This document shows positions 1-50,296 of a stretch of DNA of 64,000 bases, piece after piece. Under the pieces are notes generated by a model. It was given only the letters and a program-made list of their open reading frames with translations, was not told the origin of the DNA and searched no databases. Numbering within the stretch: position 1 is the stretch's first letter; each line of letters starts with the position of its first letter. Location: NCBI GenBank assembly GCA_041651455.1, contig JBAZJG010000009.1, positions 16,450-80,449 on the forward strand, in the 5' to 3' direction. Source of the DNA: Candidatus Omnitrophota bacterium. GTDB lineage: Bacteria; Omnitrophota; Gorgyraeia; Pluralincolimonadales; Pluralincolimonadaceae. The position numbers and the translations under genes were made by a program.

Positions 1-44
1 TTTATCCTTATTCCGGGTGCAAGATGAACGCTGAAGGACGGTTC

Positions 45-2921
45 ATGAAAGTGAAGAGAGGCGTTGCGCTGATAATTGCCGTCGGCGTGCTCGCGCTTGT
101 CGCGATGATAGCGACGAGTTTCGCGATCAACATGCAGATGGAATACAGGGCCACGCTCAACTTCGTGAACCAGTCGCAGGCCGCGAATCTCGCGCAGGCC
201 GGCATCGACAGGGCTGTTGCCGATATCCGTTCGTGGGTCGCGAATAATACCTATGATGCCGCGATGGGGAATATCGCGGCAAATTATACGTCACCCGGTA
301 CGGAGGTCGACATAACGGGAGGAAGCTACCAGGTATTCGTCGAGAGGGAGGACCAGAAGATAAATATCAACGCCATCGACGAAACGGATTACCCGTGGAT
401 AGATACGCTCATGGCGGCCGGCTTGAGTGACGTCGATGTTGCGAGGATAATAGATTACCGTGACCCTGATTCCAACGCGCTGACACAGTTGTTAAGGTCC
501 ACAGGTGTAATTATTGCCGCCGGCAATGAGACGAACTCGAAGAATGCGCCTTACGCGAGCGTGGAAGAGCTGCGGCTCGTCCTTAATAATGATGCGAAAT
601 ATAACGCCGTCAGGGACCTTGTCACAATATATGCCCCGCTCATACAGGGCGGGCTCATATGCAAGGGTTATACGAACAGCAGGGATCCTTGGGACAGGGA
701 TACGATTCTGTCCCTGGGTTATTATTCCGGGAAGGTCATCGAGCTGGGCGCGATGAAGGAAGCCGTTGCAGCCAGTGCATCGCCGTGGCCTCCGTCAGGC
801 ACTTTTCCCGGCGCTGATGGCGTTAATTCTGGCTGGGGCGAGGCGCATGACGGAGAGTTTGCCGGAGGGTATTTGGTCGTCGATTGGCAGAACCGTTACG
901 GGCTGGATGGATGCGGGATGGTATTTACCGGTTTTATTTATATTCCCCAGAACAGGGTAAATACGAATATCGTATTCAGGATGCGCAGTGAGAATGGCTG
1001 CAGGCTTTTCATAGACGGAGTCCAGCTAATCGCCGACTGGAGCGACAGGACGATGGGCAGCTGGCCGGCCAACAACGTCCTGACCAGCGGGCCTGTACGG
1101 TTCACGCGCGGCGGGTGGCTTCCGATAAGAATTGACTATTATAATGCCGGGAACCAGAATACGCTGGAACTAAAGTGGGATGCTTTGGGCGCAGAGGACT
1201 TTGTTCCAGCCGATTACTTTGCTTTCTATCCTTCATCATATTACGGAAGGATCCTGGATAAATGGAATACGGATACTTATATTGCGGCGCCTACTCTCGG
1301 GACCGATTATAATTCCGGCGGTATCGTAAAAGTCGTGTCGACCGGAAAGGCAAAGAGGGCGGACGGAACTGTACTGGCGGAAAAGAGGATAACTTCCGTC
1401 GTGCAGGTCTTTAACACCCTCACGCAGACGACCAGGGCGGAATTCTACGCGTCGTGGTTCTCGAATTACAACGATTACAGCGACGGAGAGCTGAGAAATG
1501 TTACCTGGCTCGATAGTTGCCCTATAAGTGCCGATTCGTGGAACGGCTCATCCATGGCGTGGGAAACGGATACCTACAGCAAGAGCTATGATTCCGTCAA
1601 ACTCGGTTACTGGGATGATTTTGACGATGACATAGCATACAGCGTTATAAATTGGAGGGGCGGATACCTTACCAAGATAACGGGAATGCTTCCTTCCAGC
1701 CCCTATACTTTTCCTGATGGCAGGACTTTCTCGGTCCCGACCGGTATTATCTGGGCCGCCGATACTAGATGGGACCTCAGCTTTGGCGACACCTCCCTGA
1801 GGCAGGGTTTCAACGGGACCTACGGTCTCAGGCTCGATTGTAAGGGTAACTATAAAGAATGGGTGACGGTTCCGCCGAATCCTCCCGTGGAGGTTCAGTA
1901 TTACCCGGAAGAGAGGAGCGCTGAGCTTAACGGGAGTTTTTACTCTCCGGGAGCGGTCTTGGGTTATAATATCTTCGCCCGGTGTTATATTTATGATGAC
2001 GGGCAGAAGGAGACCTCCAGCGGAATATGGCACAGGTCTCCGAGCAAGCGCCTGACGAACCCGGGGCAGCCTACGCCTGCTTATACTCCGTCGTGGCTTA
2101 CAGGTTATCTCTTCTTAAAAGAAGATCCTTATGTGCAGGGTAACCCAAAGCCGGGCGGCGGGTATTATTGCCTTGTAAAAGACGGAGATAATGACCTTTA
2201 CGACGCGGATATGAACGAGCTTGATGTGCCCTCATATAGCATCCAAAACGGAACTTATTCCCTTTGGCCGGATGATACACAGTACTATATTTTGTCTTCG
2301 ATAGGAGTGGGGACTACTTACAGGATATATTATACATACAGGACTTCCGGAGGATGGGGTTTTATCCAGGGCAATGCACGAGGCGCCGGCAGCTCCACCA
2401 AGACGGGGGTGGTAAAGCTACGGGGTAATAATCTTTATTACGCTGATGTGGACCAATTTTGGGCGACTCATGCAAATAATGCTTTCATCGAGAAGCTCGC
2501 CGAACGCAACGCTGACTGGTGGGGATGTGACTCTGAGAGCGTAACGCAATTCGATAACATTAGGGTGATCTACCAAAAGGGGTATATCGTGTCCGCCCCG
2601 TTTATTACCAAACTGCCGACCGACAATGCCGCGATAACATGGGATTCCATAACATGGGCCGGCATTATCCCAGTTAATACGTCTATCACGATGTATGCAA
2701 GGGCGGCGGACAGCCCCTCGTCCACAGATAATTTTACCTCGAATTACGCAAGCGGCGCGTCATTATCGGGGTTGTCGGGCAGGAAGTTCCAGTACAAGGC
2801 GTTATTGGCCACGAACGCGCTTAACCCGAACGATTATTCGGCGAGCAGCGTCACGCCTGTTCTTACGGAAGTAACGGCAACATTCCACAAACCGTCGGCG
2901 CAGGTATTCTATCAGCAGTGA
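45..2921 (+). CDS. Giant GspK-like minor pseudopilin (about 958 aa) with an internal PA14 lectin-like domain. An alternative start is at 24.
   Basis: The N-terminus KRGVALIIAVGVLALVAMIATSFA is a GspK / prepilin-type hydrophobic segment. KININAID is an HhH-like GspK motif. Nt ~820-1215 carry the PA14 signature (FTGFIYIP...RLFIDGVQLIADW...LELKWD). The conserved VTWLDSCP motif is shared with the paralogs at 3811 and 7668. An RBS-like gaagga lies 8 nt before the ATG at 45. Confidence 0.6.
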   Translation: MKVKRGVALIIAVGVLALVAMIATSFAINMQMEYRATLNFVNQSQAANLAQAGIDRAVADIRSWVANNTYDAAMGNIAANYTSPGTEVDITGGSYQVFVEREDQKININAIDETDYPWIDTLMAAGLSDVDVARIIDYRDPDSNALTQLLRSTGVIIAAGNETNSKNAPYASVEELRLVLNNDAKYNAVRDLVTIYAPLIQGGLICKGYTNSRDPWDRDTILSLGYYSGKVIELGAMKEAVAASASPWPPSGTFPGADGVNSGWGEAHDGEFAGGYLVVDWQNRYGLDGCGMVFTGFIYIPQNRVNTNIVFRMRSENGCRLFIDGVQLIADWSDRTMGSWPANNVLTSGPVRFTRGGWLPIRIDYYNAGNQNTLELKWDALGAEDFVPADYFAFYPSSYYGRILDKWNTDTYIAAPTLGTDYNSGGIVKVVSTGKAKRADGTVLAEKRITSVVQVFNTLTQTTRAEFYASWFSNYNDYSDGELRNVTWLDSCPISADSWNGSSMAWETDTYSKSYDSVKLGYWDDFDDDIAYSVINWRGGYLTKITGMLPSSPYTFPDGRTFSVPTGIIWAADTRWDLSFGDTSLRQGFNGTYGLRLDCKGNYKEWVTVPPNPPVEVQYYPEERSAELNGSFYSPGAVLGYNIFARCYIYDDGQKETSSGIWHRSPSKRLTNPGQPTPAYTPSWLTGYLFLKEDPYVQGNPKPGGGYYCLVKDGDNDLYDADMNELDVPSYSIQNGTYSLWPDDTQYYILSSIGVGTTYRIYYTYRTSGGWGFIQGNARGAGSSTKTGVVKLRGNNLYYADVDQFWATHANNAFIEKLAERNADWWGCDSESVTQFDNIRVIYQKGYIVSAPFITKLPTDNAAITWDSITWAGIIPVNTSITMYARAADSPSSTDNFTSNYASGASLSGLSGRKFQYKALLATNALNPNDYSASSVTPVLTEVTATFHKPSAQVFYQQ

Positions 2922-3814
2922 GAGGGAGCGTCTTTATGAGGAATATCTTCATCCTTTTAGTGATAGCAAGCGTCTCTGCGGCGCCGGCATCATTTGCGGC
3001 GGGCGCGGATAAATATATAATTAAAGTTCCCGGAGACTGCACTACGATAAAAGAAGCTTGCGAGAGATCGCTTCCCGGCGATACGATACTGCTCGGCGAG
3101 GGCGAGTTCACGGCAGAAAACGGGATAGTGTTCAAAGGAAATACGAAGCTCGCGGGGCAGGGTGCCGACAAGACGGTCCTGAAACTCGGACCAACGGGGC
3201 TAGGGATCATATCCATCAACGGGAACATTAATAATTTTGCACTGAAGGATATAACTGTTGAGGTAAACGGCTATCCGTTTATGGTAAACGGGCTGGACGG
3301 CCTGCTTATTAAGAACTGCGTTTTCCGCGGAAAGAACCTCTCTACATGTCTTGAGATCAGCTCGGTCAGAAATGCGCAGATATTAAATTGCAATGTTGTG
3401 AACGGTGGTTACGGGCTGCAACTCTGGGGAGGCCCTATAGAACTTACTGTCAGGAACTGTATATTTTATAATAATAGAGTGGGAATCGACGTTCCTCGGC
3501 CTCCGATAATGGCAAATACCAGGGATTGGCCGAAAGAAGAAGTTGAAAAATACTGGCAGAGGCCGCGCGAAGATGTCCGCCTTGAGCTTGAATATAATGT
3601 TTTCTGGAATATAAAGGATTTCATAGATTGCAAGAAAGGCGCCAAAGACATAATGTCTGACCCCAGGTTCGCGAATCCTTCAAAGGACGATTATCACATC
3701 AAGGATAACTCCCCGTGTATCGATGCCGGCGATCCCGACAAGAAGTATGACGATCCGGACGGCTCGCGCAACGACATCGGTGCATTTCCTTCCGGCGGCA
3801 AGAAGAGGAAATGA
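2918..3814 (+). CDS. Secreted right-handed parallel beta-helix (pectin-lyase-fold) protein
   Basis: Signal peptide MRNIFILLVIASVSAAPASFAAG. Repetitive N/G/V/I-rich beta-helix rungs (NGNINNFALKDITVEVNG..., NCNVVNGGYGLQLWGG, NNRVGIDV). Overlaps the upstream gene by 4 nt. Confidence 0.5.
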   Translation: MRGSVFMRNIFILLVIASVSAAPASFAAGADKYIIKVPGDCTTIKEACERSLPGDTILLGEGEFTAENGIVFKGNTKLAGQGADKTVLKLGPTGLGIISINGNINNFALKDITVEVNGYPFMVNGLDGLLIKNCVFRGKNLSTCLEISSVRNAQILNCNVVNGGYGLQLWGGPIELTVRNCIFYNNRVGIDVPRPPIMANTRDWPKEEVEKYWQRPREDVRLELEYNVFWNIKDFIDCKKGAKDIMSDPRFANPSKDDYHIKDNSPCIDAGDPDKKYDDPDGSRNDIGAFPSGGKKRK

Positions 3815-6312
3815 CCATGTTAAGGAAGAAAAGGGGCGTCGCGCTTATAATAACGGTGGGCATGTTGTCGCTTATGGCGATACTTGCGACGTCTTTTGCC
3901 TACAATATGATGTTTGACCTCAAGGGATCGGTTAACCATGTATTCAAGCTGAAAGCCAAGAACGCAGCCGATGCCGGCATAGCCCTCGCGATTGCCTATA
4001 TGAGGAACCTCGCCATAACGGATTTTAACGCCACACCGACGGCATCATGTGATTGGGGTTATACAAACGCGTCGAGTCCGTCTTTCGATGCGCGCGACGG
4101 GACTGTGAACAATTCCACAAGCGGCCTTTTTGGGAATGTCGGCAGGAACAGTATAGCCGTATACTCGCTGAAAGTGGTTGACACCAATGCTCAGATAAAC
4201 GTCAATGACACAAACCCGAACCTCAGGGATATCCTAGGCAATCTCACGGAGGTTCTCGGCCTCGCGAGGGCGGACGGAGAAGCTATCGCCGACAACGCTA
4301 ACAGGCCGTTCGCGACGAAGGAAGAGGTGATGACCTCGACAGGATGGACAGCTGCGAAATATGCCGTGATCAGGGATTATATTGCCGTGAACGGTTATTT
4401 CGACGAAAACAGCGAGGATTCTACCGCACCGGTCCCTCTGGGGCCAGGCAGTTACCAGAGGAAGTCGCCGGTAAATATTAATACCGCGAGCTCCGAGGTC
4501 CTTCAGGCTGTCTTAAGGGGAGTGATCACCGACCAGCAAGCGGCGGCGCTTGCGGCCGCGATCATTGCCCAGCGCAACACCGTGCCGTTCAGGGGATGGA
4601 ATGCCGCAACAGCGGCAGGCGGTTTTGACGATTTTATCGATAACGTTTCCATAACGCCTGCGCTCGGTTTAAGCGACAGGGCTAATGTCAAGGATAACGC
4701 CAATCCGAACAGGATAAAGCCCTCGACAAGCACCACGGATTTCTGTTTTAACCCGGGCGGATTCTTTGAGATAACATCCACTGGAACGACGGGCGTTGAT
4801 GCCAATTCGGACGGGGACCTTTCGGATATCATCGACATGGTATCGGCTAAGCAGGAGACCGTCGTCATCGCCAGGATATACGAGGTCCTGAACTATACGA
4901 CAAAAGAGCAGTTCCGCGGGGAGGATGCCAATTATAACGGTGTCTTGGACCCAGGCGAGGATAAAAACGGCAACGGTATCCTTGAACTGCCTGTTTTTTC
5001 AAGGGTGACATGGCTGAATTCATGCCCCGTACTGTCAAACGAAGACCAGGGCCTTGTATATGCCGCGAACTATTCGACGATCCCCAATTCACTGAAACTC
5101 GGTTATTGGGATGGTTTCGACGAAGACAACGACAATGTCAGCAAGAACGGATACAGTTGGTCGAACTGGCAGCAGCAGAACGGGGTGTTGAACATATCCG
5201 ACAGCGACGCTGACGGCGAATGCGAGATGTGGGGATCGGGTTGGCCGAAGTTCGCGCTGGCGGATATCAGCAAGTGGACATTCGGAGGTACTTTCTCCTT
5301 TCGCGTATCTCTAAGGCCTTCCCCGGGCGGCGATGGATGGGAAGATTCCGGGCATATCGATTTTTCGTGGGCAGGGCAGGTTAAAGGTAAACTGTGGACG
5401 CAGAATTGGGGTTTCCAATACTCTCCAAGGAGGGATATTACCCGGCCGGGATGGACCGTGGCTAACGATTCTGCCACAAGCGAGCCCTCATCGGCAAGGG
5501 AGGGAAAGGATTTTGCTGACAGCAAGGTACTGCTCCACATGTGGAAAAACAGCCCCGCCCTGAGGAACGAGCGAACCTACAACCTTGGGTACCTGTATGG
5601 ATTAAGCGATCCTCAGATTAACCACTATTTCGATTATACGGCAACGTCTGGCGACCAGGGGGCGGAGCAGTTCCACGGCGTATGCCCCGTAAGGGAGACC
5701 CTGAAACTCGTCGTTAGTAACGCGCAGAGCCCCAATTACCGCGTCTATCTAGCCGTAGGGCAGGGTTGGCACAGGTATTATAATTTCAGTAACGGATGGT
5801 TCCTTAGCAGCGTAGGTTTCAGCCCGACGACTACCGGTTATGTGATGATACCGTTCCATGCCGACGCGTCGAACGAGCTTAAGCGCGACAGGTACGGTTT
5901 CTGGACAATAACCAACAATGACATAAACAGCTGGCAGCTTACGCAATGGTATCCCGTTCTTTACGGGAATAACGCTTCTCCGCAATGGGACGAACTGAGG
6001 ATAATATCCCCTGACGGGACATATCGCTGTCCGACCTTCATGGCGGGGGAGAACGTCAGGTGGGGGACGATATCCTGGACGGTGACGGTGCCTTCAACCG
6101 CTAACGCCTCATCTGAACAGGTTTCGATGCAGGTTGACACCGGCAGCGGCGCGGCAGCGGTGTCGAAAGACGGCCCGATAGGAGGCGTTTCGGGAGGCGC
6201 GGCCTTTATCGCGTTGCTTTCCAGCATTAACGCCAATTTCACGGAAACACCGGTCCTCGAAGACGTAACGTTGACTTATCTTCCGCCGGTTGAGATCGTA
6301 TATTGCAAATAG
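3811..6312 (+). CDS. Giant GspK-like minor pseudopilin, paralog 2 (833 aa)
   Basis: N-terminus KRGVALIITVGMLSLMAILATSFA. SPVNINTASSEVLQAVL is an HhH (GspK/ComEA-like) motif. Shares FRGEDANYNGVLDPGED and VTWLNSCP with the paralog at 7668. ATGA overlap with the upstream gene. Confidence 0.6.
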   Translation: MTMLRKKRGVALIITVGMLSLMAILATSFAYNMMFDLKGSVNHVFKLKAKNAADAGIALAIAYMRNLAITDFNATPTASCDWGYTNASSPSFDARDGTVNNSTSGLFGNVGRNSIAVYSLKVVDTNAQINVNDTNPNLRDILGNLTEVLGLARADGEAIADNANRPFATKEEVMTSTGWTAAKYAVIRDYIAVNGYFDENSEDSTAPVPLGPGSYQRKSPVNINTASSEVLQAVLRGVITDQQAAALAAAIIAQRNTVPFRGWNAATAAGGFDDFIDNVSITPALGLSDRANVKDNANPNRIKPSTSTTDFCFNPGGFFEITSTGTTGVDANSDGDLSDIIDMVSAKQETVVIARIYEVLNYTTKEQFRGEDANYNGVLDPGEDKNGNGILELPVFSRVTWLNSCPVLSNEDQGLVYAANYSTIPNSLKLGYWDGFDEDNDNVSKNGYSWSNWQQQNGVLNISDSDADGECEMWGSGWPKFALADISKWTFGGTFSFRVSLRPSPGGDGWEDSGHIDFSWAGQVKGKLWTQNWGFQYSPRRDITRPGWTVANDSATSEPSSAREGKDFADSKVLLHMWKNSPALRNERTYNLGYLYGLSDPQINHYFDYTATSGDQGAEQFHGVCPVRETLKLVVSNAQSPNYRVYLAVGQGWHRYYNFSNGWFLSSVGFSPTTTGYVMIPFHADASNELKRDRYGFWTITNNDINSWQLTQWYPVLYGNNASPQWDELRIISPDGTYRCPTFMAGENVRWGTISWTVTVPSTANASSEQVSMQVDTGSGAAAVSKDGPIGGVSGGAAFIALLSSINANFTETPVLEDVTLTYLPPVEIVYCK

Positions 6313-7514
6313 GAGAAGAGATGCGGGGACTTAAAAATTTGGCCTTCGTTTTGTTGTTATCTGCCGTTATCTTGTGCCTGGGCGAGGCGCAGGCGGATAT
6401 TATTGAGTTGAAGGAGGCGGGGGAAAAGATAGACGGGAAGATAATCGAGGAAAGCGACACTCATGTGACCGTGAAACTCAAGACGGGGGGAAAGAGCACC
6501 TTTCCCAAAGCGTGGATAAAGAACATAAAGAAAGCGGAGATACCGGAAGAGGAACTTTATACGAAGCAGGACGTATACCTTTCGAAGCTCAAGATGCTTG
6601 ACCCGAATGATGCCGAAGCGCAGTTAAGCATCGCCAAGTGGTGCTTTGATAATGCCACCGCGGACAACGGGCTCTTTGAAATGGCCGACAGGCACTATAA
6701 GGCCGCGAAAGAGTTGGACCCGAAATTTGCCGAAAAAGGCGGCAAGGAGCTTGCCGCTGCACAGGAGAAAGAGGCAGAAAAACTGTTTTCCGTAGCGGAA
6801 ACCGAATATAAGCTGGGCGAATATTTTAAGGCCGAACAGATGGCGATATCGGTGATTTCGCTTTACCCGGATTCCTCTTTTGCGGGAAAAGCCAGGGGGC
6901 TTATAGCGAAGATCTGGGGTAATGCCAGGGCGCCGAAGATATTCGATAACCCGCAGAACCTGCCCGAGATCGTATTTACGGTTGAAGAGATGCAATCAGT
7001 GCTTTCCCATATGGGCACCGAAGAGCGCAAGCAGGCGTATTTCATGAAGTGCCTTGATCGCGGTATAGATTACGAGGAGCGGGCGGAGGAGGTCGATAAA
7101 GACAGGAAGGGCGGGTATTATATGGCAGCGATATCATGTTACGATGTCGTTTCGGGTTCAGCCGCAGGCCAAGTGAAGAAATCCGCCGACTTCAAGATGC
7201 AAGGCTCATTAAAAAAATATTTTGACGGTAAACCGGAGCCGTTCAGCGATGCACGTTACGCGCTGATGGCCGGATATATTCTAAAGATACAGGACCCGTC
7301 TTATATAGAAAAGCTTACCGTCCAATATTCCAAGCTGGGCGACGAGTTGTTTAAGAAAGCGAAGAGGATGAAGCAGCCTGAGAAATCAGAAAAAGCCAAA
7401 ACGGCGTATTTTTGCTTCTCGATCGTAAACAATTATTCAAAAGACGAAATGATAAGGCAGGATGCCTTCGAGAAAATGATAGAATGCCAGCGCCTTGAGA
7501 GAGCGCGCAAGTAG
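6303..7514 (+). CDS. Secreted partner protein of unknown function, paralog A. The probable start is at 6321.
   Basis: Signal peptide MRGLKNLAFVLLLSAVILCLGEAQA. Paralogous to 10255..11457, with the same C-terminus (E/V)CQRLERARK and a shared KQPEK...AYFC(F/Y)SI block. No family recognised. Confidence 0.45.
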   Translation: MQIGEEMRGLKNLAFVLLLSAVILCLGEAQADIIELKEAGEKIDGKIIEESDTHVTVKLKTGGKSTFPKAWIKNIKKAEIPEEELYTKQDVYLSKLKMLDPNDAEAQLSIAKWCFDNATADNGLFEMADRHYKAAKELDPKFAEKGGKELAAAQEKEAEKLFSVAETEYKLGEYFKAEQMAISVISLYPDSSFAGKARGLIAKIWGNARAPKIFDNPQNLPEIVFTVEEMQSVLSHMGTEERKQAYFMKCLDRGIDYEERAEEVDKDRKGGYYMAAISCYDVVSGSAAGQVKKSADFKMQGSLKKYFDGKPEPFSDARYALMAGYILKIQDPSYIEKLTVQYSKLGDELFKKAKRMKQPEKSEKAKTAYFCFSIVNNYSKDEMIRQDAFEKMIECQRLERARK

Positions 7515-7520
7515 ATGTAT

Positions 7521-7575
7521 AAAATCTTGCTTTTGAAAAGAAATATTTGACATCACGGTGATAATCTTGTATACT
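7521..7575 (+). promoter_or_regulatory. Conserved about 25-nt A-rich upstream element plus a sigma70 promoter: TTGACA (7547-7552), 17-nt spacer, TATACT (7570-7575).
   Basis: Read directly from the sequence. The same cassette recurs at 11465..11520 with about 90% identity, although the flanking coding sequence has diverged much more. Confidence 0.55.
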
Positions 7576-7667
7576 TTAATAAAATAAGAAAACCGATAAA
7601 AGAAGAATTATTTTTTTTGAGCAAAAATGCCCCCGTGGGCATTCAATCAAACCATAGGGTTGAAGCA

Positions 7668-10247
7668 ATGAATAGCAGTAACAGGAAGGGTGTCGCTCTC
7701 ATCATAACGGTAGGGATCCTTGCGCTCCTGGCTATGATTGCGACCTCTTTCGCGTATAATATGATGGTTGACCTCAAGGACGCCGCCAATTATGTATTGA
7801 AGATGAAGGCAAAGAACGCGGCTGAAGCGGGGGTAAACCTTTCGATAGCACACCTCAGGATGCTTGCCACAAGCGATTTCAATGCAGTCCCTACAACCGC
7901 ATGCGATTGGGCATATACGAGTTCCACGCAGCCGTCATTCGACGGCCGCGACGGCACAGCAGGCAATTCAACGAGCGGATTGCTGGGCGATGTCGGCAGG
8001 GGGCATATCGCCGTGTGTTCGTTGAGGGTTACCGACACCAATTCACAGATAAACATAAACGACACCAACCCGAACCTGAATGTCATCCTTGGCAATCTCG
8101 GGACCATTTTGGCCATTCCGGGATGGGCACAGGCGAATGCGGACAGCATGGTCTCCGGAAGGCCTGCGGGCGGTTATGCGACCAAGGAAGGGATAGTCGA
8201 ATATATGCCGGGCGCCGACCTGACGGCAAAGAGGGCTAATTATGCCCTTATAAGGGACTTCGTGACCGTCAACAGCTATATAGACCAATACAGCGAGGAC
8301 GCGGCCGCCCCGTTGCTTACCAGTAATAATTACCAGAGCAAGTCGCCGGTCAATATCAACACGGCAAGGAGGGAGGTATTGCGCGCGGTCCTGCGCCCGC
8401 TTGTCAGCACGGATGTGAACGCGGCTCAGGTAGCCAACGCGATAGTCACCGCGAGGACAATGGTCTCCCCGTTCCGGAGCTGGAACGGGACTGCGGCACA
8501 GGGAGGTTTCAATGCTTTTATAGACAACATAAATCCGACCATACTGAACAATCCGCAGAAGGAGGCCATCAAGAATAATTTCAACCCGAACAAGGTCAAA
8601 CAGGGCACATATACGACGGATTTCTGTTTCCACCCGGGCGGTCTATACGAGATCGTCTCGACCGGCACGGTCGGATTAGACAATAATTCGGACGGCGCGG
8701 TTGAGGATGTCAAGGCAAGGCAGGAGCTCACCGCGGTCGCGAGGATATACAGCATCCTTAATTATACGGCAAAGGAGCAGTTCCGCGGCGAGGACGCGAA
8801 CTATAACGGCATTTTGGACGCGGGCGAGGACGCGAACAGCAACGGCGCAATCGACAGCCCGACGTTCCAGAATGTGACATGGATGAATTCATGCCCGGTG
8901 GTCTCGACGGAAGGCGACAGCGTCAAATATCCCGCGGTCGGCGGTTATACGGCAGTTCCGAATTCCATCAAGCTCGGAGTTTGGGATAATTTTGACGAGG
9001 ACAATTACGATACGAACGGAGACGGAGTGGTCGAGAACGGCTTCAGTGTCTGGGCGTGGACAAAATTGTCCGGCGGGCTGTCGACAAGAGAAATAAGAGA
9101 TGCCGATGCCGACGGCGATATGGAGATTTATGGTACCGGAGACTATTCGGGGTCCCCGTGGATTTACCCTAAATTCCAATTAAGGCCGGACTGGGTATTC
9201 GGAAAAAGGTTCTCGCTTAGGGCCTTTCAGATCCCGAATGTAGACGGGGACGGAATAGACGATGGCGGTCATATAGATTTCACTAGTTTCGCCGCCGGCA
9301 CCACATATGGATCCTTGCTGATGATGAGATTTGCATATAACTATCCGGGAGGCAGGGATATGACCAGGCCTCCTGCGTCAGTAATATGGGATGATTCTGC
9401 CACAGCTGCCGGTAATGCAAAAAAAGGCAAGGATTTTCCCGATAGCAGCATCTTCCTGAAGATGAGTAACACCAGTATGCGTCTATACAGGCTGGGCGAC
9501 CTGTACGGTTATACAGACCAATTTACGGACCACTATAATTTTTGTACCGATCCTACAGCAGGTGCCGTTACTTTTTTTGAAGAGGGGATAGATAGGTATC
9601 ACGGGGTAATGCCGGAAATATATACTTTGAAACTTGCCGTGAGCCCCGATTTGTCGCCAAATTACCGGGTCTGGTTCGCGGTCGGGAACATAAATACCGC
9701 CGAACAATATGACTATCATAACGGTACATATACCGGGTTTATAGCGTGTTCAGCTCCGTCCGCTAATTTTATGGCAGTTCCGATACATACCAGTTCGCGC
9801 ATGTCTTATGATAGGTATGACTGTCACGATATAGCTTGCCCCAGCAATACCTGGAATATCAGCGCATGGTACCTGACGCTTTACGGGCAGCATTCCTCCA
9901 CAACATGGGATGAGGTAAGGGTCATACCCGATACCGGGTTTTACCAGTCGTCCGCATTTGCGGCATCGTTACTTAACGGCGGTAATCCCGTAATATGGGG
10001 TACGGCTTCATGGACTATTAGCATACCTTCCACCGCTAGCCCGGCAAGTGAAATATGTAACGTACAAACGGATATCGGAAGCGGAATGGTGAATGCTGCA
10101 TATAACGGGGCAATAGGGGGGTCCTCAAACTCAATCTACTATAAGATAAATTTATCCTCGATCGACACGGATTGCAGCGAGACGCCGGTCTTCGAGGACA
10201 TGACTATAACTTATCTACCCAGGGTAAGCATATTATATCAGAGGTAA
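7668..10247 (+). CDS. Giant GspK-like minor pseudopilin, paralog 3. The ORF track begins at a TTG at 7617, but the start is more likely the ATG at 7668.
   Basis: N-terminus RKGVALIITVGILALLAMIATSFA. SPVNINTARREVLRAVL is an HhH motif. VTWMNSCP motif present. A 7-bp hairpin (7626-7643) and a T8 tract lie between 7617 and 7668, so the 5' end is probably untranslated. Confidence 0.6.
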   Translation: MNSSNRKGVALIITVGILALLAMIATSFAYNMMVDLKDAANYVLKMKAKNAAEAGVNLSIAHLRMLATSDFNAVPTTACDWAYTSSTQPSFDGRDGTAGNSTSGLLGDVGRGHIAVCSLRVTDTNSQININDTNPNLNVILGNLGTILAIPGWAQANADSMVSGRPAGGYATKEGIVEYMPGADLTAKRANYALIRDFVTVNSYIDQYSEDAAAPLLTSNNYQSKSPVNINTARREVLRAVLRPLVSTDVNAAQVANAIVTARTMVSPFRSWNGTAAQGGFNAFIDNINPTILNNPQKEAIKNNFNPNKVKQGTYTTDFCFHPGGLYEIVSTGTVGLDNNSDGAVEDVKARQELTAVARIYSILNYTAKEQFRGEDANYNGILDAGEDANSNGAIDSPTFQNVTWMNSCPVVSTEGDSVKYPAVGGYTAVPNSIKLGVWDNFDEDNYDTNGDGVVENGFSVWAWTKLSGGLSTREIRDADADGDMEIYGTGDYSGSPWIYPKFQLRPDWVFGKRFSLRAFQIPNVDGDGIDDGGHIDFTSFAAGTTYGSLLMMRFAYNYPGGRDMTRPPASVIWDDSATAAGNAKKGKDFPDSSIFLKMSNTSMRLYRLGDLYGYTDQFTDHYNFCTDPTAGAVTFFEEGIDRYHGVMPEIYTLKLAVSPDLSPNYRVWFAVGNINTAEQYDYHNGTYTGFIACSAPSANFMAVPIHTSSRMSYDRYDCHDIACPSNTWNISAWYLTLYGQHSSTTWDEVRVIPDTGFYQSSAFAASLLNGGNPVIWGTASWTISIPSTASPASEICNVQTDIGSGMVNAAYNGAIGGSSNSIYYKINLSSIDTDCSETPVFEDMTITYLPRVSILYQR

Positions 10248-10254
10248 TAAAGGA

Positions 10255-11457
10255 ATGAACAGAGCGAGAATACATAAAGTTTGGATATTCATATTGGCTT
10301 ATGCCGCAGCATCGGCTTGGGCCGTAGTCCGGGCGGATGATGTAATCCTAAAAGAGAGCGGACGTGTCATTGTCGGCAGGATACTCGGAGAAAAAGACGG
10401 GATGCTTACCGTAAAGATGACTAAAGGCGGTACCTGCGTTCTCCCGAGGGATTGGATAAAGCAGATAATAAAGAAAGATATTGCCGACGAAGAGCTTTTT
10501 ACCAAAGGTGATTTATATCGGCAGAAGCTGAAAGACATCGATCCGGAATCCGCGGAAGACCATCTGTCGCTTGCCGATTGGTGCCTTAAGAACGGAACTC
10601 CGGAAAACGGAATGCTCTTTGCCGCCGAATCCCATTTTAATATTGCGATGCAGATTGATCCGGACTCCGCAAAACGCGGATCGGCAGAACTTCTAAAGGC
10701 AAGGGAGAAGACTGCCGAGAAGTCCTACTCTATAGCCGTGATAGAGTATGATAACGGAGAATACATTAAATCAGAAACCGAAGCACTATCGCTTATTTCC
10801 GCGTATGGTGAGACAAGATATGCATTAAAGGCTAAGGACTTGCTTGTCAAAATATGGGGCAAGGACAGGGCAGCCGCGTTACTGGAACCTAAAGATGATT
10901 TGCTTCCGGGAATTGTATATACAAAGGAAGACTTGCAGTCTGTTCTTTCAAACTTCCAAAATGAGGAGCAGGCAGAGCTGTATTTTTTGAAATGTATAAG
11001 AAAAGCGAAAGATTGCGAGCAGAGGAGCGAGGAAGTCCCTGTAGGCAAGAGGGCAGGTTATTACAGGATAGGCATTGACTGCTACAGAAATGTTTTGTCA
11101 AGCGTAAAGCCTGAGGTAAGGGCCATTGCAGATTTAAATATGCAGGTATTGCTTAAGAAATATTTTGTCGACCCGCCGGCATTGTACAGTGATTATTATT
11201 TCTCTCTTGCATCCAATATGATGCTGTTAATAAAGGACCAGCAACTCGTTCAGGATATAAGCACGCGGTACTCGGAGACAGGAGACGGATTATTCAAGAA
11301 GGCAAGAAGGCAAAAGCAGCCCGAGAAGGGCAAGAACGCAATGGCCGCATATTTCTGTTATTCCATAGCAAATAATTTTTCTAAGGACGGGAAGATAAGG
11401 GAGAATGCTATTGAGAATATGGTCGAATGCCAGCGCCTGGAGAGAGCACGCAAGTAG
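10255..11457 (+). CDS. Secreted partner protein, paralog B
   Basis: Signal peptide MNRARIHKVWIFILAYAAASAWA. Colinear with 6303..7514, including the C-terminal VECQRLERARK. Confidence 0.45.
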   Translation: MNRARIHKVWIFILAYAAASAWAVVRADDVILKESGRVIVGRILGEKDGMLTVKMTKGGTCVLPRDWIKQIIKKDIADEELFTKGDLYRQKLKDIDPESAEDHLSLADWCLKNGTPENGMLFAAESHFNIAMQIDPDSAKRGSAELLKAREKTAEKSYSIAVIEYDNGEYIKSETEALSLISAYGETRYALKAKDLLVKIWGKDRAAALLEPKDDLLPGIVYTKEDLQSVLSNFQNEEQAELYFLKCIRKAKDCEQRSEEVPVGKRAGYYRIGIDCYRNVLSSVKPEVRAIADLNMQVLLKKYFVDPPALYSDYYFSLASNMMLLIKDQQLVQDISTRYSETGDGLFKKARRQKQPEKGKNAMAAYFCYSIANNFSKDGKIRENAIENMVECQRLERARK

Positions 11458-11464
11458 GAGCGTC

Positions 11465-11520
11465 AAAATCTTGCTTTGGAAAAAGAAATAATTGACAACC
11501 GGGTTCTAATTTTATAGAAT
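11465..11520 (+). promoter_or_regulatory. Second copy of the conserved upstream element plus a sigma70 promoter: TTGACA (11492-11497), 17 nt, TAGAAT (11515-11520). It leaves only about a 7-nt leader before the pilM ATG at 11534.
   Basis: Read directly from the sequence. No Shine-Dalgarno motif lies between the -10 box and the ATG, which suggests a near-leaderless mRNA. Confidence 0.5.
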
Positions 11521-11533
11521 ATACGCAAGCCAT

Positions 11534-13132
11534 ATGGGAAAACGTGCTCTTGGAATCGATATAGGCGCAGGCTCAGTCAAGCTCGTAGAGCTTGAGAAGA
11601 CATCCGAAGGCGTGCAACTCCTTCGGGCAAAGTTTTTTGACCTCACTCAGCACCCCGACCAGGAGAAACGCGAAGCCCTCGTAAGGGAAGGTCTCGAAGG
11701 GCTCCTCAAGACAGAAAAGATCAGAAGCGGCAATACTGCAATATCCCTCTCAGGCCAATCAGTCTTCATCAGGTTCCTTAAGCTCCCCAAGATACAAAAA
11801 GGCAAAGTAGACAAGATAATAAAATACGAGGCCCAGCAGCAGGTTCCGTTCCCCCTTGATAAGATAACCTGGGACCACCAGATATTCCATAGCAGTGCCG
11901 GCCCGGAAGAGGATGTGCTCTTTGTCGCCGCCAAGAAGGAGCTTGTCGAGGCCACGTTATTGAATTTTTCGAGGACCGGCCTCAACGTCGAGATCGTCGA
12001 CGTGAGCCCGCTCTCACTACTCAACGCGATCACCTACAACGAGCCTCTCGCCAAAGGCGTCATAATAGATATAGGAGCGAAGGCGACGAACCTGATAGTC
12101 CTCGACGCAAAGGGCTTCTGGGTGCGCTCGGTGCTTGTGGCAGGCGATGAAATGACGCACGCGATAGCGTCGAAAATGAACATACCGTTCGACAAGGCCG
12201 AAGAACTCAAGCGCAAGGAAGGCATGGTCGTCCCGTCGGACAACCTCGTGCCGTCGAACATAAGCTCTACGGGCCAGGAGCTGGTAAACATACTTAATAC
12301 AGTTGTCTCCGACATGGTCTCGTCGATAATACAATCCCTGGAATTTTATAAGTCAAAGCACGGCAGGGACGTAGTCTTTGGAGAGGTAATACTCTCCGGC
12401 GGCGGTTCGAAGCTGAAGGGCATAGAGGACTACCTTGCAAAAGGCCTAGGAATGCAGATAAGGCGCGCGAACCTCGGCCAGAAGATAAAATGCCCTTCAA
12501 ACCTCAGGGTAGACATAGATTTCCAGTCGAGGTTCGGGGCCGCGATAGGCCTCGGCCTGCGCCTGCTCCAGAGATGCCCCACGAATATAGACCTGCTGCC
12601 TGCCGAAAGGAAAGAGGACAGGGATTTCAAGAAGGAAAGGATCTGGATAATGGCGGCAGGGGTCATGCTGTCGCTGATACCTTTCACGATAGCGATGAAT
12701 ATATGGTTCCAGTCCGGTGCGCTCAGGAAACAGATAATGTTTCTCGACGACATATTGGCGCAATATGACGACGTGAAAGCGAAAATAGCGTTGCTGAAAG
12801 ACGATATCAAGAAGGGCGAACAGAAGATAAAACCGCTCGAAGGCGTCGCTATAAGGAGATCGTTGCTTTTGGAGGCGCTCCTTGAAGTCGAGAAGCTGCT
12901 CCCGAAAGAGACGTGGTTGACCTCGCTTAGCGAAGAGAAGGATTGGGTCTCTATAGAAGGCAGGACTTCAGAGAACCTTCTCACTATAACGGAGTTCAAG
13001 AACAAGCTTTCTGCGTCATCGTTGTTCGATTCGGTTGAAATAATCTACGCTAGCCTTCCGAAGGATTCCGAGGAAGGTATTGGCCAGTTGAGGGATTTTT
13101 CGATCAAGTTCAAACTGAAGGCAGGACAGTAG
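11534..13132 (+). CDS. pilMN: PilM-PilN fusion protein (type IV pilus / T2SS inner-membrane assembly)
   Basis: The N-terminus ALGIDIGAGSVKLVEL is the actin-like PilM signature. The C-terminal third has a TM helix (IWIMAAGVMLSLIPFTIAMNIWF) followed by a coiled coil, as in PilN. Confidence 0.65.
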   Translation: MGKRALGIDIGAGSVKLVELEKTSEGVQLLRAKFFDLTQHPDQEKREALVREGLEGLLKTEKIRSGNTAISLSGQSVFIRFLKLPKIQKGKVDKIIKYEAQQQVPFPLDKITWDHQIFHSSAGPEEDVLFVAAKKELVEATLLNFSRTGLNVEIVDVSPLSLLNAITYNEPLAKGVIIDIGAKATNLIVLDAKGFWVRSVLVAGDEMTHAIASKMNIPFDKAEELKRKEGMVVPSDNLVPSNISSTGQELVNILNTVVSDMVSSIIQSLEFYKSKHGRDVVFGEVILSGGGSKLKGIEDYLAKGLGMQIRRANLGQKIKCPSNLRVDIDFQSRFGAAIGLGLRLLQRCPTNIDLLPAERKEDRDFKKERIWIMAAGVMLSLIPFTIAMNIWFQSGALRKQIMFLDDILAQYDDVKAKIALLKDDIKKGEQKIKPLEGVAIRRSLLLEALLEVEKLLPKETWLTSLSEEKDWVSIEGRTSENLLTITEFKNKLSASSLFDSVEIIYASLPKDSEEGIGQLRDFSIKFKLKAGQ

Positions 13133-13134
13133 AT

Positions 13135-13899
13135 ATGGCAAAGGGCATTAAGCCGCATGTAATGACGAAACTTGTGCTGGGGCTCGTGTTCCTCGGGTCC
13201 CTTTGTGTCGCCATATTTGTCGCTTTCGACAGGTCTTCCCTCGAGAGATCCATACAGGATAAGACCGGCGAACTCGAGAGTTATAAGGATCAGGGGCTTG
13301 CCGTCCTTAATAGGGATAGGCTCAGGCTCGAAAAACAGCTTAAGGCCCTTAAGGACGTGAACGACCAATTGAGTGCCGGGCTCTTCTCGAACCCGAAATC
13401 AAAGATGCCGAAGGAAGCCGGCGATGCGTTAAAGTTCAAGGAAGAACTTTACAGGGTCCAGAACAAGATAAAGGAAGAAGGGATGCCGATAGATTTCCAG
13501 TTCCCGTTCTGGCTCGGTTTCGAAAGATATGAGCACGATATTCCCGTTTCAGCCGATCTGCCTGTCAGGGCTAAGCAGCTCGAGATAATAAAAGAGATCA
13601 TGGATTTGATGTTGCAGGCGAAGGTTCCTGAGGTGTCGTCAATAGAGTTCCTCGAATCGAAGAACGTGACTTATGACGGCGGCAAGGAGCCGATGTTCAG
13701 GGAGTTCCCTGTAAGGATGTCATTCAAATGCAAGAACGACAACCTTCTCGGTTTCTTGTATAAGATATATGTTTCCGGTATACCTTTCAGAGTGGACATG
13801 CTCAAGATCAAGGTCCTTAATGAGGAGACCGGCGAGAAGGGCGAGCTTAAAGTGGAAGCCGTTATAGTGGCTGCAATACAGCAGGCGGATAAGATATGA
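13135..13899 (+). CDS. PilO-like bitopic membrane protein
   Basis: N-terminal TM helix (LVLGLVFLGSLCVAIFVAF), a coiled-coil segment and a periplasmic domain. Its position right after pilMN matches PilO. Confidence 0.4.
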   Translation: MAKGIKPHVMTKLVLGLVFLGSLCVAIFVAFDRSSLERSIQDKTGELESYKDQGLAVLNRDRLRLEKQLKALKDVNDQLSAGLFSNPKSKMPKEAGDALKFKEELYRVQNKIKEEGMPIDFQFPFWLGFERYEHDIPVSADLPVRAKQLEIIKEIMDLMLQAKVPEVSSIEFLESKNVTYDGGKEPMFREFPVRMSFKCKNDNLLGFLYKIYVSGIPFRVDMLKIKVLNEETGEKGELKVEAVIVAAIQQADKI

Positions 13900-14567
13900 A
13901 AGGCATCTATAAGATAGCCGCGATCGCATTGTTCATATTATGGTTTATACTGCTATGGTTGGCGCCGGTACTGTTTACGCCTAAGGATTTCTCGGTCCCG
14001 ACAGGCGAGGATAGCATAATTAAGTCAGATGATATTACGGTTGACGCGTCTAATGCGTATTCTACGCTTATAGAAAGCATAAAGTCCCCGTTTGCCGCTT
14101 CAAGATACCAGCAGCTCCTAGACAGGAACCTGTTCATCAAGCCGGAAACTCCTCCGCCGGTTTTTACTCCGGACAAGCTTAAAGTTGTGTCCATAGGGGC
14201 AACAAACCTGCCGTTCATATATACGGGGTTCATACAGAAGCAGGACGGCACTATAATAGGACAGATTAACTGGTCGGGGAAGACATATTTCGCGAAGAAG
14301 GGCGAGAAGTTCAAGGATTATAAGGTGCTCGAGATAAATTCGAAACAGATTAGGGCCGAGAACAAGGATGGACAGCTGACACTGGAATTCAAGAAACCCG
14401 TGAAGAGCAAAGAATTGATTGGAAAGCTCTTCAATTCCATGGATGACAAGACATATGAAGTGAAAAAGGGAGATGATATAAATGGTTATAAAGTTCTTGA
14501 CATTAAGGCCGATAGTGTGATAATATACGGCCAGGATCAAGAGTGGGTCATTAAAAAGGGGAGATGA
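13896..14567 (+). CDS. PilP-like or periplasmic assembly component (uncertain)
   Basis: N-terminal TM helix / signal anchor (IAAIALFILWFILLWLAPVLF). The assignment rests on operon position only. Confidence 0.3.
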   Translation: MKGIYKIAAIALFILWFILLWLAPVLFTPKDFSVPTGEDSIIKSDDITVDASNAYSTLIESIKSPFAASRYQQLLDRNLFIKPETPPPVFTPDKLKVVSIGATNLPFIYTGFIQKQDGTIIGQINWSGKTYFAKKGEKFKDYKVLEINSKQIRAENKDGQLTLEFKKPVKSKELIGKLFNSMDDKTYEVKKGDDINGYKVLDIKADSVIIYGQDQEWVIKKGR

Positions 14568-14572
14568 TATAA

Positions 14573-15691
14573 ATGGATATTACCAATGGGGTTAAAAGAA
14601 CGGTTCCGCCATTTTTTTGTATCTTTCTGACTTTCAATTTGTTCTTTATTATCTCATTGTATTATTTTGCCGGGGACGAAGCCTACGCTGCCACGGGAGC
14701 CGGATATTCTAATGATTCCCTTGAGGCAAAAATAATAGCCGAGGACCTGGCAAAGCAGAAGAAAGTAGAAAAGAAATCCCTCGTTGCAGACCTCTTTAAG
14801 CAGGCAAAAGCCTCATACGACGCGAAAGATTACGAGACCTCCCAGAAGATGTTCGAAAGAGTCGTCCAATTAGACCCGAAGAACAAGCAAGCCTCGCACT
14901 ATGTGGAATTGTGCAAGGAAGGCATGGCTAAGGATGTCCCCGCATCAATATCGGGCACCCTTATGAAGAGGGGTAAAGCAAATTACGCGAACAAACAGTA
15001 TTCGGCCGCAATAGCGGATTTTGAAACTGCGTTGGCCGCGAACCCTAATGACTCCGAAGCCAGGTTGTGGCTCGAGAAGGCCCATAAGGGAGAAGAACTG
15101 TATTCAAGGGAAAAATCGACCAAAGAAGAGCGAAAAGATATAGTTAATGATAGGAAGGTTTTGAAGGAAGAGAAGGACACGGCAGAGCAGGCAGCCCTGC
15201 GAGACGTCGACAAGGGTTGGCTGCCTCCGGCTGCGCCGGTAAAGGAAGAGCTTCAGGTTGAAGAGGTTATATCGGAATCCGAGAGGGCCGAACAGGAGGC
15301 CAAGAAGGCGCTTATCGATAAGATGCGCAGCGTGATGGTCCCTGCGATTTCAGTCACGGACGCTGATATCCAGGACCTGATACGTCAGCTTATGGAGATG
15401 ACCGGCGTCACGATAGTCGTGGATGAAAGGGAGCTTGCAGCCCTCACGAAGGATGCCCCTATAAAGATATCATTGAGCACTGCAACGCCAATGCCGTTGC
15501 TGGACGTGCTTGATATTGCGTTCAAGACGACGCAGTTGGGCTATAAAGTAGAGCCAAATTACGTATACGTAACGAGCAAGCGCATGAGGGATATAGAAGA
15601 CCTCGTGACAAGGACGTATAAGCTTAAATACCCGGAGCGCAAGACGAGGGAAGTTAAACTGAAGGAATTTGAGGTCAAAGAGGCGGAATAA
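14573..15691 (+). CDS. TPR-repeat protein with a C-terminal secretin N0 (STN-like) domain
   Basis: An N-terminal hydrophobic anchor, then TPR-like repeats (AKASYDAKDYETSQKMFERVVQLDPKN..., GKANYANKQYSAAIADFETALAANPND). The C-terminal ISVTDADIQDLIRQLMEMTGVTIVVDE...PLLDVLDIAFKTTQLGYKVEPNYVYVTS matches the GspD/PilQ N0 fold pattern. Confidence 0.5.
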   Translation: MDITNGVKRTVPPFFCIFLTFNLFFIISLYYFAGDEAYAATGAGYSNDSLEAKIIAEDLAKQKKVEKKSLVADLFKQAKASYDAKDYETSQKMFERVVQLDPKNKQASHYVELCKEGMAKDVPASISGTLMKRGKANYANKQYSAAIADFETALAANPNDSEARLWLEKAHKGEELYSREKSTKEERKDIVNDRKVLKEEKDTAEQAALRDVDKGWLPPAAPVKEELQVEEVISESERAEQEAKKALIDKMRSVMVPAISVTDADIQDLIRQLMEMTGVTIVVDERELAALTKDAPIKISLSTATPMPLLDVLDIAFKTTQLGYKVEPNYVYVTSKRMRDIEDLVTRTYKLKYPERKTREVKLKEFEVKEAE

Positions 15692-15693
15692 AT

Positions 15694-16809
15694 ATGGTAA
15701 AAAATCTCTGTCTTTTTGCGCTGGCGTCCCTTCTAATACTCCCCCGTATGGTGTCTGCAGAAGACATCAACGTCGCGAATTACCTGAAAGACAGCCTTCC
15801 TCCGCAGGAAGGCCGGAAGATAACGTATAACCAGTCATCAAAACTCCTTACCGTTACGGACACCAAGTCGAACCATAACCTGATAAAGAACCTTATAAAA
15901 CAGTTCGAGATAGGGCCAAAACAGGTCATGATCGAGACAAGGTTCGTAGAGGTCGATGTTACCGATCTCATGGAGATCGGTATTGAGTGGGATTTCTACA
16001 AACAGGGCCATCCTAGCGGCAAAGGTTTCAGGGGCATGCGTTGGGGCGATCCTACTCCCGGCGCCGATTATCAGGGCGTCCATTGGAATAACGACCTTGA
16101 ATCCACGTTCCCTATAACAGGGAATTTTGCCGGGCAGCTGGCGCTCTATAAAGTGCTGGAATCCGGTGATTATATAGTATCTAACCTCAGGGCTTTGGCT
16201 GAGCAGGGCAAGGTGAACCTGTTGTCATCCCCGAAGATAACGACGGTCGCCGGCCAAATGGCGAATATCCAGGTAGTCAGGACCCAGCCGTATGTTTCGG
16301 ACTTTACGCTTGAAAATATCGGTACGGCGGAAGACCCTATATGGAGCTATAAGCTAACTCTTGCCGAGAAGCCGATAGGTATATTTCTCGAGGCCACTCC
16401 TTATGTGACCGAAGGCTCGAACACGATAACGCTTGACCTCCATCCCGAGGTCAGCATATTGAGAGATCAGGTGCGGATATCGACGCTTACGACAAGCGGT
16501 GAGACCGGTGAACTCGGTAACGTTACCGCCGACGACTCGATACCGCTTATCCCGGAAGACCTCGGATGGCCTGTTGTGGATGTCAGGACTACGCAAACCA
16601 GCGTCGTAGTCGACAGCGGTCAGACGATAGTCCTTGGCGGGATGATCAAGGATGAAGAGCAGGTGATCAAGAGAAAAGTCCCGGTATTGGGGGATATACC
16701 GCTGCTTGGGAAGGCTTTCCAGTATGATTACAAAGAACAGCGCAAGAAGAACCTCCTTATATTCATCACGGCCAGCATCATCAATGCCAGAGGGGAGGTA
16801 ATAAGGTGA
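15694..16809 (+). CDS. Short secretin (GspD/PilQ family), paralog 1
   Basis: Signal peptide. VMIETRFVEV (start of the N3 / secretin domain). C-terminal KVPVLGDIPLLGKAFQY...KNLLIFITASII is the canonical secretin motif. Confidence 0.75.
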   Translation: MVKNLCLFALASLLILPRMVSAEDINVANYLKDSLPPQEGRKITYNQSSKLLTVTDTKSNHNLIKNLIKQFEIGPKQVMIETRFVEVDVTDLMEIGIEWDFYKQGHPSGKGFRGMRWGDPTPGADYQGVHWNNDLESTFPITGNFAGQLALYKVLESGDYIVSNLRALAEQGKVNLLSSPKITTVAGQMANIQVVRTQPYVSDFTLENIGTAEDPIWSYKLTLAEKPIGIFLEATPYVTEGSNTITLDLHPEVSILRDQVRISTLTTSGETGELGNVTADDSIPLIPEDLGWPVVDVRTTQTSVVVDSGQTIVLGGMIKDEEQVIKRKVPVLGDIPLLGKAFQYDYKEQRKKNLLIFITASIINARGEVIR

Positions 16810-17927: not shown

Positions 17928-18247
17928 AACGCAAGCTTATAGTCGTGTCGGTGGTATTGGCCGCGGCGGTTGCCGCTTCTACGGTGTTCGCGCAGGTCAT
18001 AACAAAGACGAAGCCTTCTGGCGGCAAACAGAAGGATATAGTCCTTACGACGGCTGATATGAAGGACTCCTATAAGGTCGTCGGAATAGTATCGGCGCGC
18101 GGCGGAGAGGTGAATCTGGACGGTTTGAACGCAAAATTGAAGGATGCGGCCAGGGACCTGGGAGCCGATTGCGTCATAGGCATAAACTATTTCAACTATA
18201 GCGGTTATGTCTACGCTTATGGCACGGCAATAAAGCTCAAGGAATAG
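17924..18247 (+). CDS. Small exported protein (107 aa) ending the secretin operon, possibly a pilotin-like accessory
   Basis: Signal peptide MKRKLIVVSVVLAAAVAASTVFAQV. Function assumed from position only. Confidence 0.3.
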   Translation: MKRKLIVVSVVLAAAVAASTVFAQVITKTKPSGGKQKDIVLTTADMKDSYKVVGIVSARGGEVNLDGLNAKLKDAARDLGADCVIGINYFNYSGYVYAYGTAIKLKE

Positions 18248-18347
18248 AGCAACCAGTCTTGTTTGGGTTTCACGCCTGTTTGTTTTTCCCGCACATTGCC
18301 TACACCGGAAATGTACCCATTAAAAAGTAGAAATTTCATATAAAGAT

Positions 18348-50219: not shown

Positions 50220-50296
50220 GGCGGCGTAGCTCAGATGGTTAGAGCGAGCGGCTCATACCCGCTATGTCATCCGTTCAATTCGGATCGCCGCCACCA
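50220..50296 (+). tRNA. tRNA with a CAU anticodon (elongator Met or lysidine-modified Ile2)
   Basis: Cloverleaf folded by hand: acceptor GGCGGCG/CGCCGCC, anticodon loop CUCAUAC, TUC loop TTCAATT, 3' CCA encoded. The G1-C72 pair and anticodon stem make it a non-initiator. It lies 640 nt upstream of tilS. Confidence 0.8.

Follow-up and report, generated by a model that had tools for sequence, protein, structure and literature searches.

The consensus of Escherichia coli UP elements consists of a distal T-tract and a proximal A-tract. The UP subsites lie at -37 to -58 and are bound by alpha C-terminal domains (PMC2613000). Regulation of a pilus promoter is known from Neisseria, where the promoter of the pilMNOPQ operon is regulated by MtrR (PMC12943328), and in Omnitrophota type IV pili are regarded as central to a host-attached lifestyle (PMC10066038).

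The locus described here is a pilus-like operon of approximately 22 kb, similar to type IV pilus and type II secretion systems, from an Omnitrophota bacterium; it lies in a 64-kb stretch of DNA, which we call the window and to whose positions all coordinates refer. Omnitrophota is an uncultivated phylum, and to our knowledge its promoters have not previously been described. Two promoter-like cassettes, P1 and P2, interrupt the operon. In our view these are probably (at a rough probability of 0.75) paralogous internal sigma-70 promoters with a UP-type element, P2 being the ancestral promoter and P1 a copy that arose through the stacking of gene modules.

Two promoter-like cassettes within a pilus operon

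The genes from position 24 to approximately 18247 form one co-directional operon. This starts with genes for a giant PA14 pseudopilin and a beta-helix protein, followed by giant pseudopilin A, partner protein A and P1, then by giant pseudopilin B, partner protein B, P2 and a PilM-PilN fusion (Table 1). The PilM-PilN gene is the first of a platform/secretin sub-operon (to approximately 18247), in which an Amuc_1100-like protein, a 223-aa protein, a TPR protein, two secretins and a 107-aa protein follow. An identical contig from another sample (L149) reaches 4.5 kb further upstream and adds T2SSE, T2SSF, T2SSG and minor pilins. The operon contains no regulator gene. The two secretin genes (371 and 373 aa, at 15694-17927), which are tandem paralogues, and the PilM-PilN fusion are conserved in all related loci. 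Elsewhere in the window, ARAGORN places a tRNA-Met (CAT) at 50220-50296, which is absent from the Rfam listing at gathering threshold.

Table 1. Positions of the two cassettes and of the genes that flank them
Feature	Position	Strand	Remarks
Giant GspK/PilX-like minor pseudopilin A	3811..6312	+	A-type module, 833 aa; Pfam T2SSK, PilX_N
Partner protein A	6303..7514	+	Approximately 397-403 aa (397 aa as called in L149); without a Pfam family
P1 upstream element	7521..7546	+	AAAATCTTGCTTTTGAAAAGAAATAT; 81% A+T, -36 to -61
P1 -35 hexamer	7547..7552	+	TTGACA
P1 spacer	7553..7569	+	17 nt, free to evolve
P1 -10 hexamer	7570..7575	+	TATACT
Predicted leader of giant B	7576..7667	+	T8 run 7611-7618; hairpin AATGCCCCCGTGGGCATT 7626-7643
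Giant pseudopilin B	7668..10247	+	Preferred ATG 7668
Partner protein B	10255..11457	+	400 aa
P2 upstream element	11465..11491	+	AAAATCTTGCTTTGGAAAAAGAAATAA
P2 -35 hexamer	11492..11497	+	TTGACA
P2 spacer	11498..11514	+	ACCGGGTTCTAATTTTA; 17 nt, constrained in the close clade
P2 -10 hexamer	11515..11520	+	TAGAAT
-10 box to pilM ATG	11521..11533	+	13 nt, without Shine-Dalgarno
PilM-PilN fusion gene	11534..13132	+	Pfam PilM_2, PilN

The gene junctions are overlaps or gaps of at most 7 nt, except for those at P1 (153 nt) and P2 (76 nt), and between 24 and 17927 these two are the only gaps longer than 25 nt. The stop codon of partner A lies 6 nt 5' of the P1 element. The start of giant B is ambiguous, the frame being open from a TTG at 7617 and a GTG at 7635, within the hairpin, being the start called in L149. 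We favour the ATG at 7668, from which the N-terminus aligns with that of giant A; similarity to the related locus L002 starts 14 nt into the L002 giant gene, corresponding to window position 7668.

P1 begins with AAAATCTTGCTTTTGAAAA (7521-7539) and P2 with AAAATCTTGCTTTGGAAAA (11465-11483). Within the window, the motif AAAATCTTGCTTT(T/G)GAAAA is found only at 7521 and 11465, and the 19-nt pattern, with up to three mismatches allowed, gives two matches in the 64 kb against 0.01 expected by chance. In both copies the upstream element runs through TTGC, a T-tract, an A-tract and GAAATAA; the two elements, of 26-27 nt, are 81% A+T in a window of approximately 50% G+C. The core sequences, TTGACA-17-TATACT (7547-7575) and TTGACA-17-TAGAAT (11492-11520), each match 11 of the 12 consensus positions, all six in the -35 box and five of six in the -10 box. 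They are the two best sigma-70-type sites in positions 1-20000, and on the forward strand of the whole 64 kb only five sites reach at least 10 of 12 with a near-TTGACA -35 box.

The original prediction, made from the letters of the window, thus placed both copies correctly (7521-7575 and 11465-11520), with a promoter-like site 3' of each partner gene. The A-rich stretch that it noted 5' of the -35 box occupies, at -36 to -61, the place expected of an UP element or a regulator site. Its figure of about 90% identity describes the part from AAAATC through TTGACA (30/33, 91%) but not the whole block (44/56, 79%), beyond that part 14 of 23 positions being the same; the -10 boxes, spacers and leaders differ. 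The near-palindrome CTTTTgAAAAG that it singled out is exact only in P1 of the window and of the related locus L001, and no part of the element varies more than its centre. Protein identity between the flanking paralogues was overestimated at 50-60%: it is 47-48% by BLASTP (48% for giant A against giant B) and 44-52% in global alignments.

Two other promoter-like sites deserve mention. A third near-consensus promoter, TTGACA-17-TATATT, is found in the gap between the T2SSE and T2SSF genes (L149 positions 1591-1619, approximately 2.9 kb upstream of window position 1). Its -35 box lies inside a terminator-like hairpin, GCGCCTTTGACAAAGGCG, that is followed by TTTT, and the site is without the shared AAAATCTTGC...AAAAGAAATA upstream element. 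A TTGACA-16-GATAAT with an extended TGTG is present at 14497-14526, inside the 3' part of the 223-aa gene, approximately 50 nt before the TPR gene. This may be a further internal promoter or may simply reflect protein constraint: the stretch TTGACA...TGTGATAAT at 14497 is coding (YKVLDIK...) and is conserved in all relatives. As this coding site is equally conserved, consensus matches alone can mislead.

Conservation of core and upstream element

We compared the cassettes with related loci, seven of which came from a search with the partner protein and eight from PilMN orthologues and DNA scans. P1 is carried by three lineages (window, L001 and L004). The element together with the -35 box (7518-7553) is invariant at 35 of 36 positions and the -10 region (7570-7579) at 90%, while the spacer is invariant at 53% and the early leader at 45%; the corresponding figure for third codon positions is 54-59%. 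With its conserved hexamers and free spacer, this pattern is the footprint that a promoter would leave.

For P2, five close lineages could be compared, whose pilMN DNA is 88-95% identical. In columns 11463-11533, 67 of 71 are invariant, against 58% of third codon positions (P ~5e-12). Four of the columns that vary among the five lineages lie directly after the stop codon, one is at the dyad centre and three are in the spacer, which also varies in distant orthologues. Synonymous sites are much less conserved than the upstream element, and the worry raised with the original prediction, that the element might be conserved no better than these, falls away. Orthologue comparisons thus show purifying selection on both P1 and P2.

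Conservation also continues downstream of the P2 promoter: all 71 positions of 11525-11595, including the synonymous sites of the first 21 pilM codons, are invariant in the five lineages. The unusual conservation of the P2 spacer and of the first 62 nt of pilM is not explained by a simple promoter model.

Among more distant relatives, core and element have different fates. The -35 box TTGACA is invariant in 15 of 15 aligned cassettes, and the spacer is 17 nt long in every copy and orthologue. All 12 lineages with a pilMN orthologue have TTGACAA(C/T), the 17-nt spacer, TA(G/A)AAT and a distance of 12-14 nt to the ATG, and this core is still found where the conserved-block proteins are only 57% identical. 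The upstream element is kept, as TTGCTnTTTGAAAAGAAATAA or TTGCT(T/A)TTTGAAAAGAAATAA, in L142, L144, L148 and L147, and persists at 57-66% protein identity, but it is diverged in L145 and cleanly deleted in L143 and L146. In these two the stop codon of the partner gene abuts TTGACA, and despite the deletion the -35 box, the 17-nt spacer, the -10 box and the spacing to the ATG are all retained. Lineages with the element stand between L143 and L146 in the tree, which makes the two losses look independent. Taken together, a core found in every orthologue and an element lost by deletion from two related lineages mark the core as essential and the element as accessory, and, given its divergence in L145 as well, the element's contribution may be small or conditional.

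Proposed function of the cassettes and of the upstream element

If both cassettes are active, RNA polymerase would start approximately 7 nt past each -10 box, near 7582 and 11527. The P1 transcript would then have a leader of approximately 86 nt, with a hairpin and a weak Shine-Dalgarno-like AGGG, while P2 would give an almost leaderless pilMN mRNA with a leader of 5-7 nt. So short a leader without a Shine-Dalgarno sequence implies initiation of the leaderless type, and both the invariant first 62 nt of pilM and the lack of any special fold there are consistent with this.

Giant pseudopilin B and pilMN each have a promoter-like site of their own, as originally predicted. The further claim that the two are identically regulated goes too far. 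The upstream element and the -35 box are common to both, but strictly identical regulation seems unlikely with -10 boxes, spacers and leaders that differ; furthermore, no terminator-like site was found on the forward strand near P1 or P2, so P1 transcripts should run on into pilMN.

What can be said of the upstream element? Its T-tract (-52 to -48) and A-tract (-46 to -43) are in register with the E. coli UP consensus, of which approximately 8 of the 14 specified positions are matched; the match is only partial, and the organism belongs to another phylum. The conserved TTGC (approximately -56 to -53) and G (-42) lie outside that consensus. By position, the element (-36 to -61) coincides with the UP subsite region (PMC2613000). 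It would raise promoter strength, through a UP-type contact with the alpha C-terminal domain, through curved DNA or through both, and it possibly doubles as a regulator site.

Two other identities for this sequence were considered. Sigma-54 promoters, with GG and GC elements 10 nt apart (TGGCAC-N5-TTGC), are common for pilin genes, but a sigma-54 promoter built on the TTGC was rejected, as it lacks a GG 12 nt upstream and the stretch in question varies among orthologues. A palindromic operator of a dimeric regulator is at odds with a dyad whose centre is its most variable part and with the 1-nt indel between P1 and P2. As the centre varies and the indel is tolerated, a UP-like or curvature element fits better than a strict dimeric operator.

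A looser form of the operator idea, itself compatible with a promoter, is that the element's main role is to bind a specific transcription factor, as operator or activator site, and that this factor co-regulates giant B with the pilMN-secretin genes. We regard this as possible but doubtful. The TTGC and the G of AAAAGAAAT are invariant in P1, P2 and distant orthologues, a pattern more specific than an A/T tract, and they leave room for a specific regulator; the clean deletions in L143 and L146 could mark the loss of control by such a factor, and pilMNOPQ promoters are under transcription factor control in other bacteria, as by MtrR in Neisseria (PMC12943328). On the other hand, the dyad varies, with TG, TA, GG, AG or TT at its centre, the 1-nt deletion in P1 shifts TTGC relative to the -35 box, and the operon, as noted above, is without a regulator gene.

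Nor did further copies come to light that such a factor might bind. The window holds only the two, and the element was not found elsewhere in approximately 200 kb of related loci. A scan of genome contigs gave, among the matches listed, mostly chance hits in A/T-rich genomes, the real ones (L046 and L100) both being this locus; the pattern was too loose for that collection, and the scan is uninformative on other genomic sites. In a metagenome scan two of 14 matches are real (L135 and L139), and both are P2 ahead of pilM. Among the matches listed, the real copies are thus all at this locus, and they offer no evidence for a regulon.

Rather unlikely is the more far-reaching proposal that the 22-27-nt element is the site of a dedicated Omnitrophota regulator or of a lineage-specific polymerase contact, coupling the pilus-tip module of giant pseudopilin and partner to the PilMN-secretin platform. 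On this reading, the expression of the two would be coupled in host-attached nanobacteria, the deletions in L143 and L146 would represent regulatory rewiring, and the near-leaderless pilMN mRNA would be a second layer of control.

Probable origin of the second copy

The modules of giant pseudopilin and partner gene are mosaic across the related loci, with A-only, B-only and A+B genomes (window 3811-11457; L001-L007 and L142-L148). The A-type module, including giant A, is the orthologue of the sole module in L143 and L146, and the B-type module is the orthologue of the sole module in L002, L007 and L142; both types are present in the window, L001 and L004. Such a distribution indicates that both modules are ancient. 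The simple recent tandem duplication that one might first assume is therefore replaced by the stacking, or by an ancient duplication, of A-type and B-type modules. Two histories fit this, a tandem pair of long standing followed by differential loss, or the later stacking of alternative cassettes, and in both P1 would have been copied from the pilMN promoter and have come along with the upstream module. Since each module stands alone in some species, the coding regions may have diverged before stacking gave rise to the promoter copy, and the comparison of coding with promoter divergence since one duplication, as drawn in the original prediction, is unsafe as a clock.

We propose that P2 is the ancestral promoter of the pilMN-to-secretin sub-operon, and that P1 arose as its copy when a second module of giant pseudopilin and partner was stacked in tandem, which would have left P1 where it is now, 5' of giant B. 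Ahead of the giant gene, single-module relatives have a hairpin, ATGCCCnCGTGGG, and a promoter-like site that belongs to this gene; in L143 the hairpin is followed by T6, which is terminator-like, and then by that site. The hairpin AATGCCCCCGTGGGCATT of the window is homologous to the one between the beta-helix and giant genes in L142 and L143. Here it lies 3' of P1, and the old -10 box of the giant gene has decayed, which fits a take-over of giant B expression by P1. The T8 run and the hairpin (7611-7643) are conserved in L001 and L004, where only the loop varies. In the window the hairpin has lost its T-tail on the forward strand, and on the reverse strand it looks like a good terminator.

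Could the block instead be kept mainly as a homology anchor for the swapping and stacking of variable pseudopilin and partner modules? The mosaic distribution speaks for this, as does L004, in which the segment matching 8900-11292 has been replaced (the partner protein is approximately 44% identical) between flanks of 80-88% identical DNA. However, the replacement ends at approximately 11293, some 165 nt before the partner stop codon and not at the cassette, in L143 and L146 the element was itself deleted instead of being used, and 33 nt is very short for homologous recombination. We consider this explanation very unlikely.

A neutral relic of recent duplication or gene conversion, with no selection on the element, is more improbable again. 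Across 260 fourfold-degenerate sites of the two paralogous gene pairs, identity is 32%, which is saturated; given this background, the probability of at least 30 identities in 33 is ~3e-12. In a sliding 55-nt comparison of the aligned units, 7482-7535 ties as the most similar stretch. P1 has a 1-nt deletion, T at -37, TC after the -35 box, TATACT and TAT before the element, where P2 has A at -37, AC after the -35 box, TAGAAT and GTC before the element, and these distinguishing states, which flank the shared block, are identical across the window, L001 and L004. As they are common to several genomes, recent gene conversion is excluded. Among orthologues, third codon positions are also much less conserved than either copy, and the element, as described above, persists at 57-66% protein identity. 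What can be said in favour of a relic is that the last 33 nt of partners A and B share synonymous codons, as in a short conversion tract. The last 11 codons of the partner genes (7482-7514 and 11425-11457) differ at two positions in the window, one in L001 and approximately eight in L004, and their near-identity may come from conversion over a very short tract, distinct from the promoter block.

Least probable of all is that the block acts in read-through RNA, where it would terminate transcription, be a site of processing or belong to the 3' UTR of the partner gene: it does follow a stop codon directly and, like the targets of RNase E and RNase Y, is A/U-rich, but no stable fold is predicted for either cassette (z = +0.61 and +0.71), neither a forward-strand terminator-like site nor an Rfam match is found there (the Rfam searches of the window at gathering and permissive thresholds returned only tRNAs and chance matches), and what is conserved, the -35 and -10 hexamers at a fixed 17-nt spacing with a free P1 spacer, is a pattern of DNA recognition.

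Comparison with known promoters and pilus operons

By all the comparisons above, the sequences of P1 and P2 are real and selected, and they are regulatory elements of an ordinary kind, with nothing that falls outside known kinds and no new kind of mechanism revealed. Their interest lies in providing a well-footprinted example, from an uncultivated phylum, of a core promoter with an accessory upstream element. The cassette could help to annotate transcription units, to design reporters and to fish for a regulator, and its history suggests that a regulatory region can be carried along during the stacking of pilus-tip gene modules.

In this last respect the locus is like other cases of promoter duplication through tandem gene duplication or stacking, in which the regulatory region is copied with the upstream module and then retained. 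It is unlike a simple recent duplicate in that the coding modules belong to ancient A-type and B-type lineages, each of which occurs alone in some relatives.

As in the pilMNOPQ operons of Proteobacteria, the unit from pilM to the secretin would have its own promoter, apart from the pilin and ATPase genes (PMC12943328). The present promoter differs in being internal to a longer co-directional operon, in which pilM and pilN are fused; the mRNA it gives would have almost no leader, and the promoter has a second copy, which precedes the gene for a giant minor pseudopilin.

The closest likeness is to sigma-70 promoters with a UP element, such as E. coli rrnB P1, which combine a consensus -35 box, a 17-nt spacer and a near-consensus -10 box with an A/T-rich block that has a T-tract and then an A-tract, lies within -37 to -58, where alpha C-terminal domains bind (PMC2613000), and is accessory to the core. 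The cassettes described here, predicted from sequence in another phylum, differ from rrnB P1 in the conserved TTGC and G of their element, and in that this element, in the window, the related loci and the matches listed, is confined to one operon instead of serving rRNA or other highly expressed genes.
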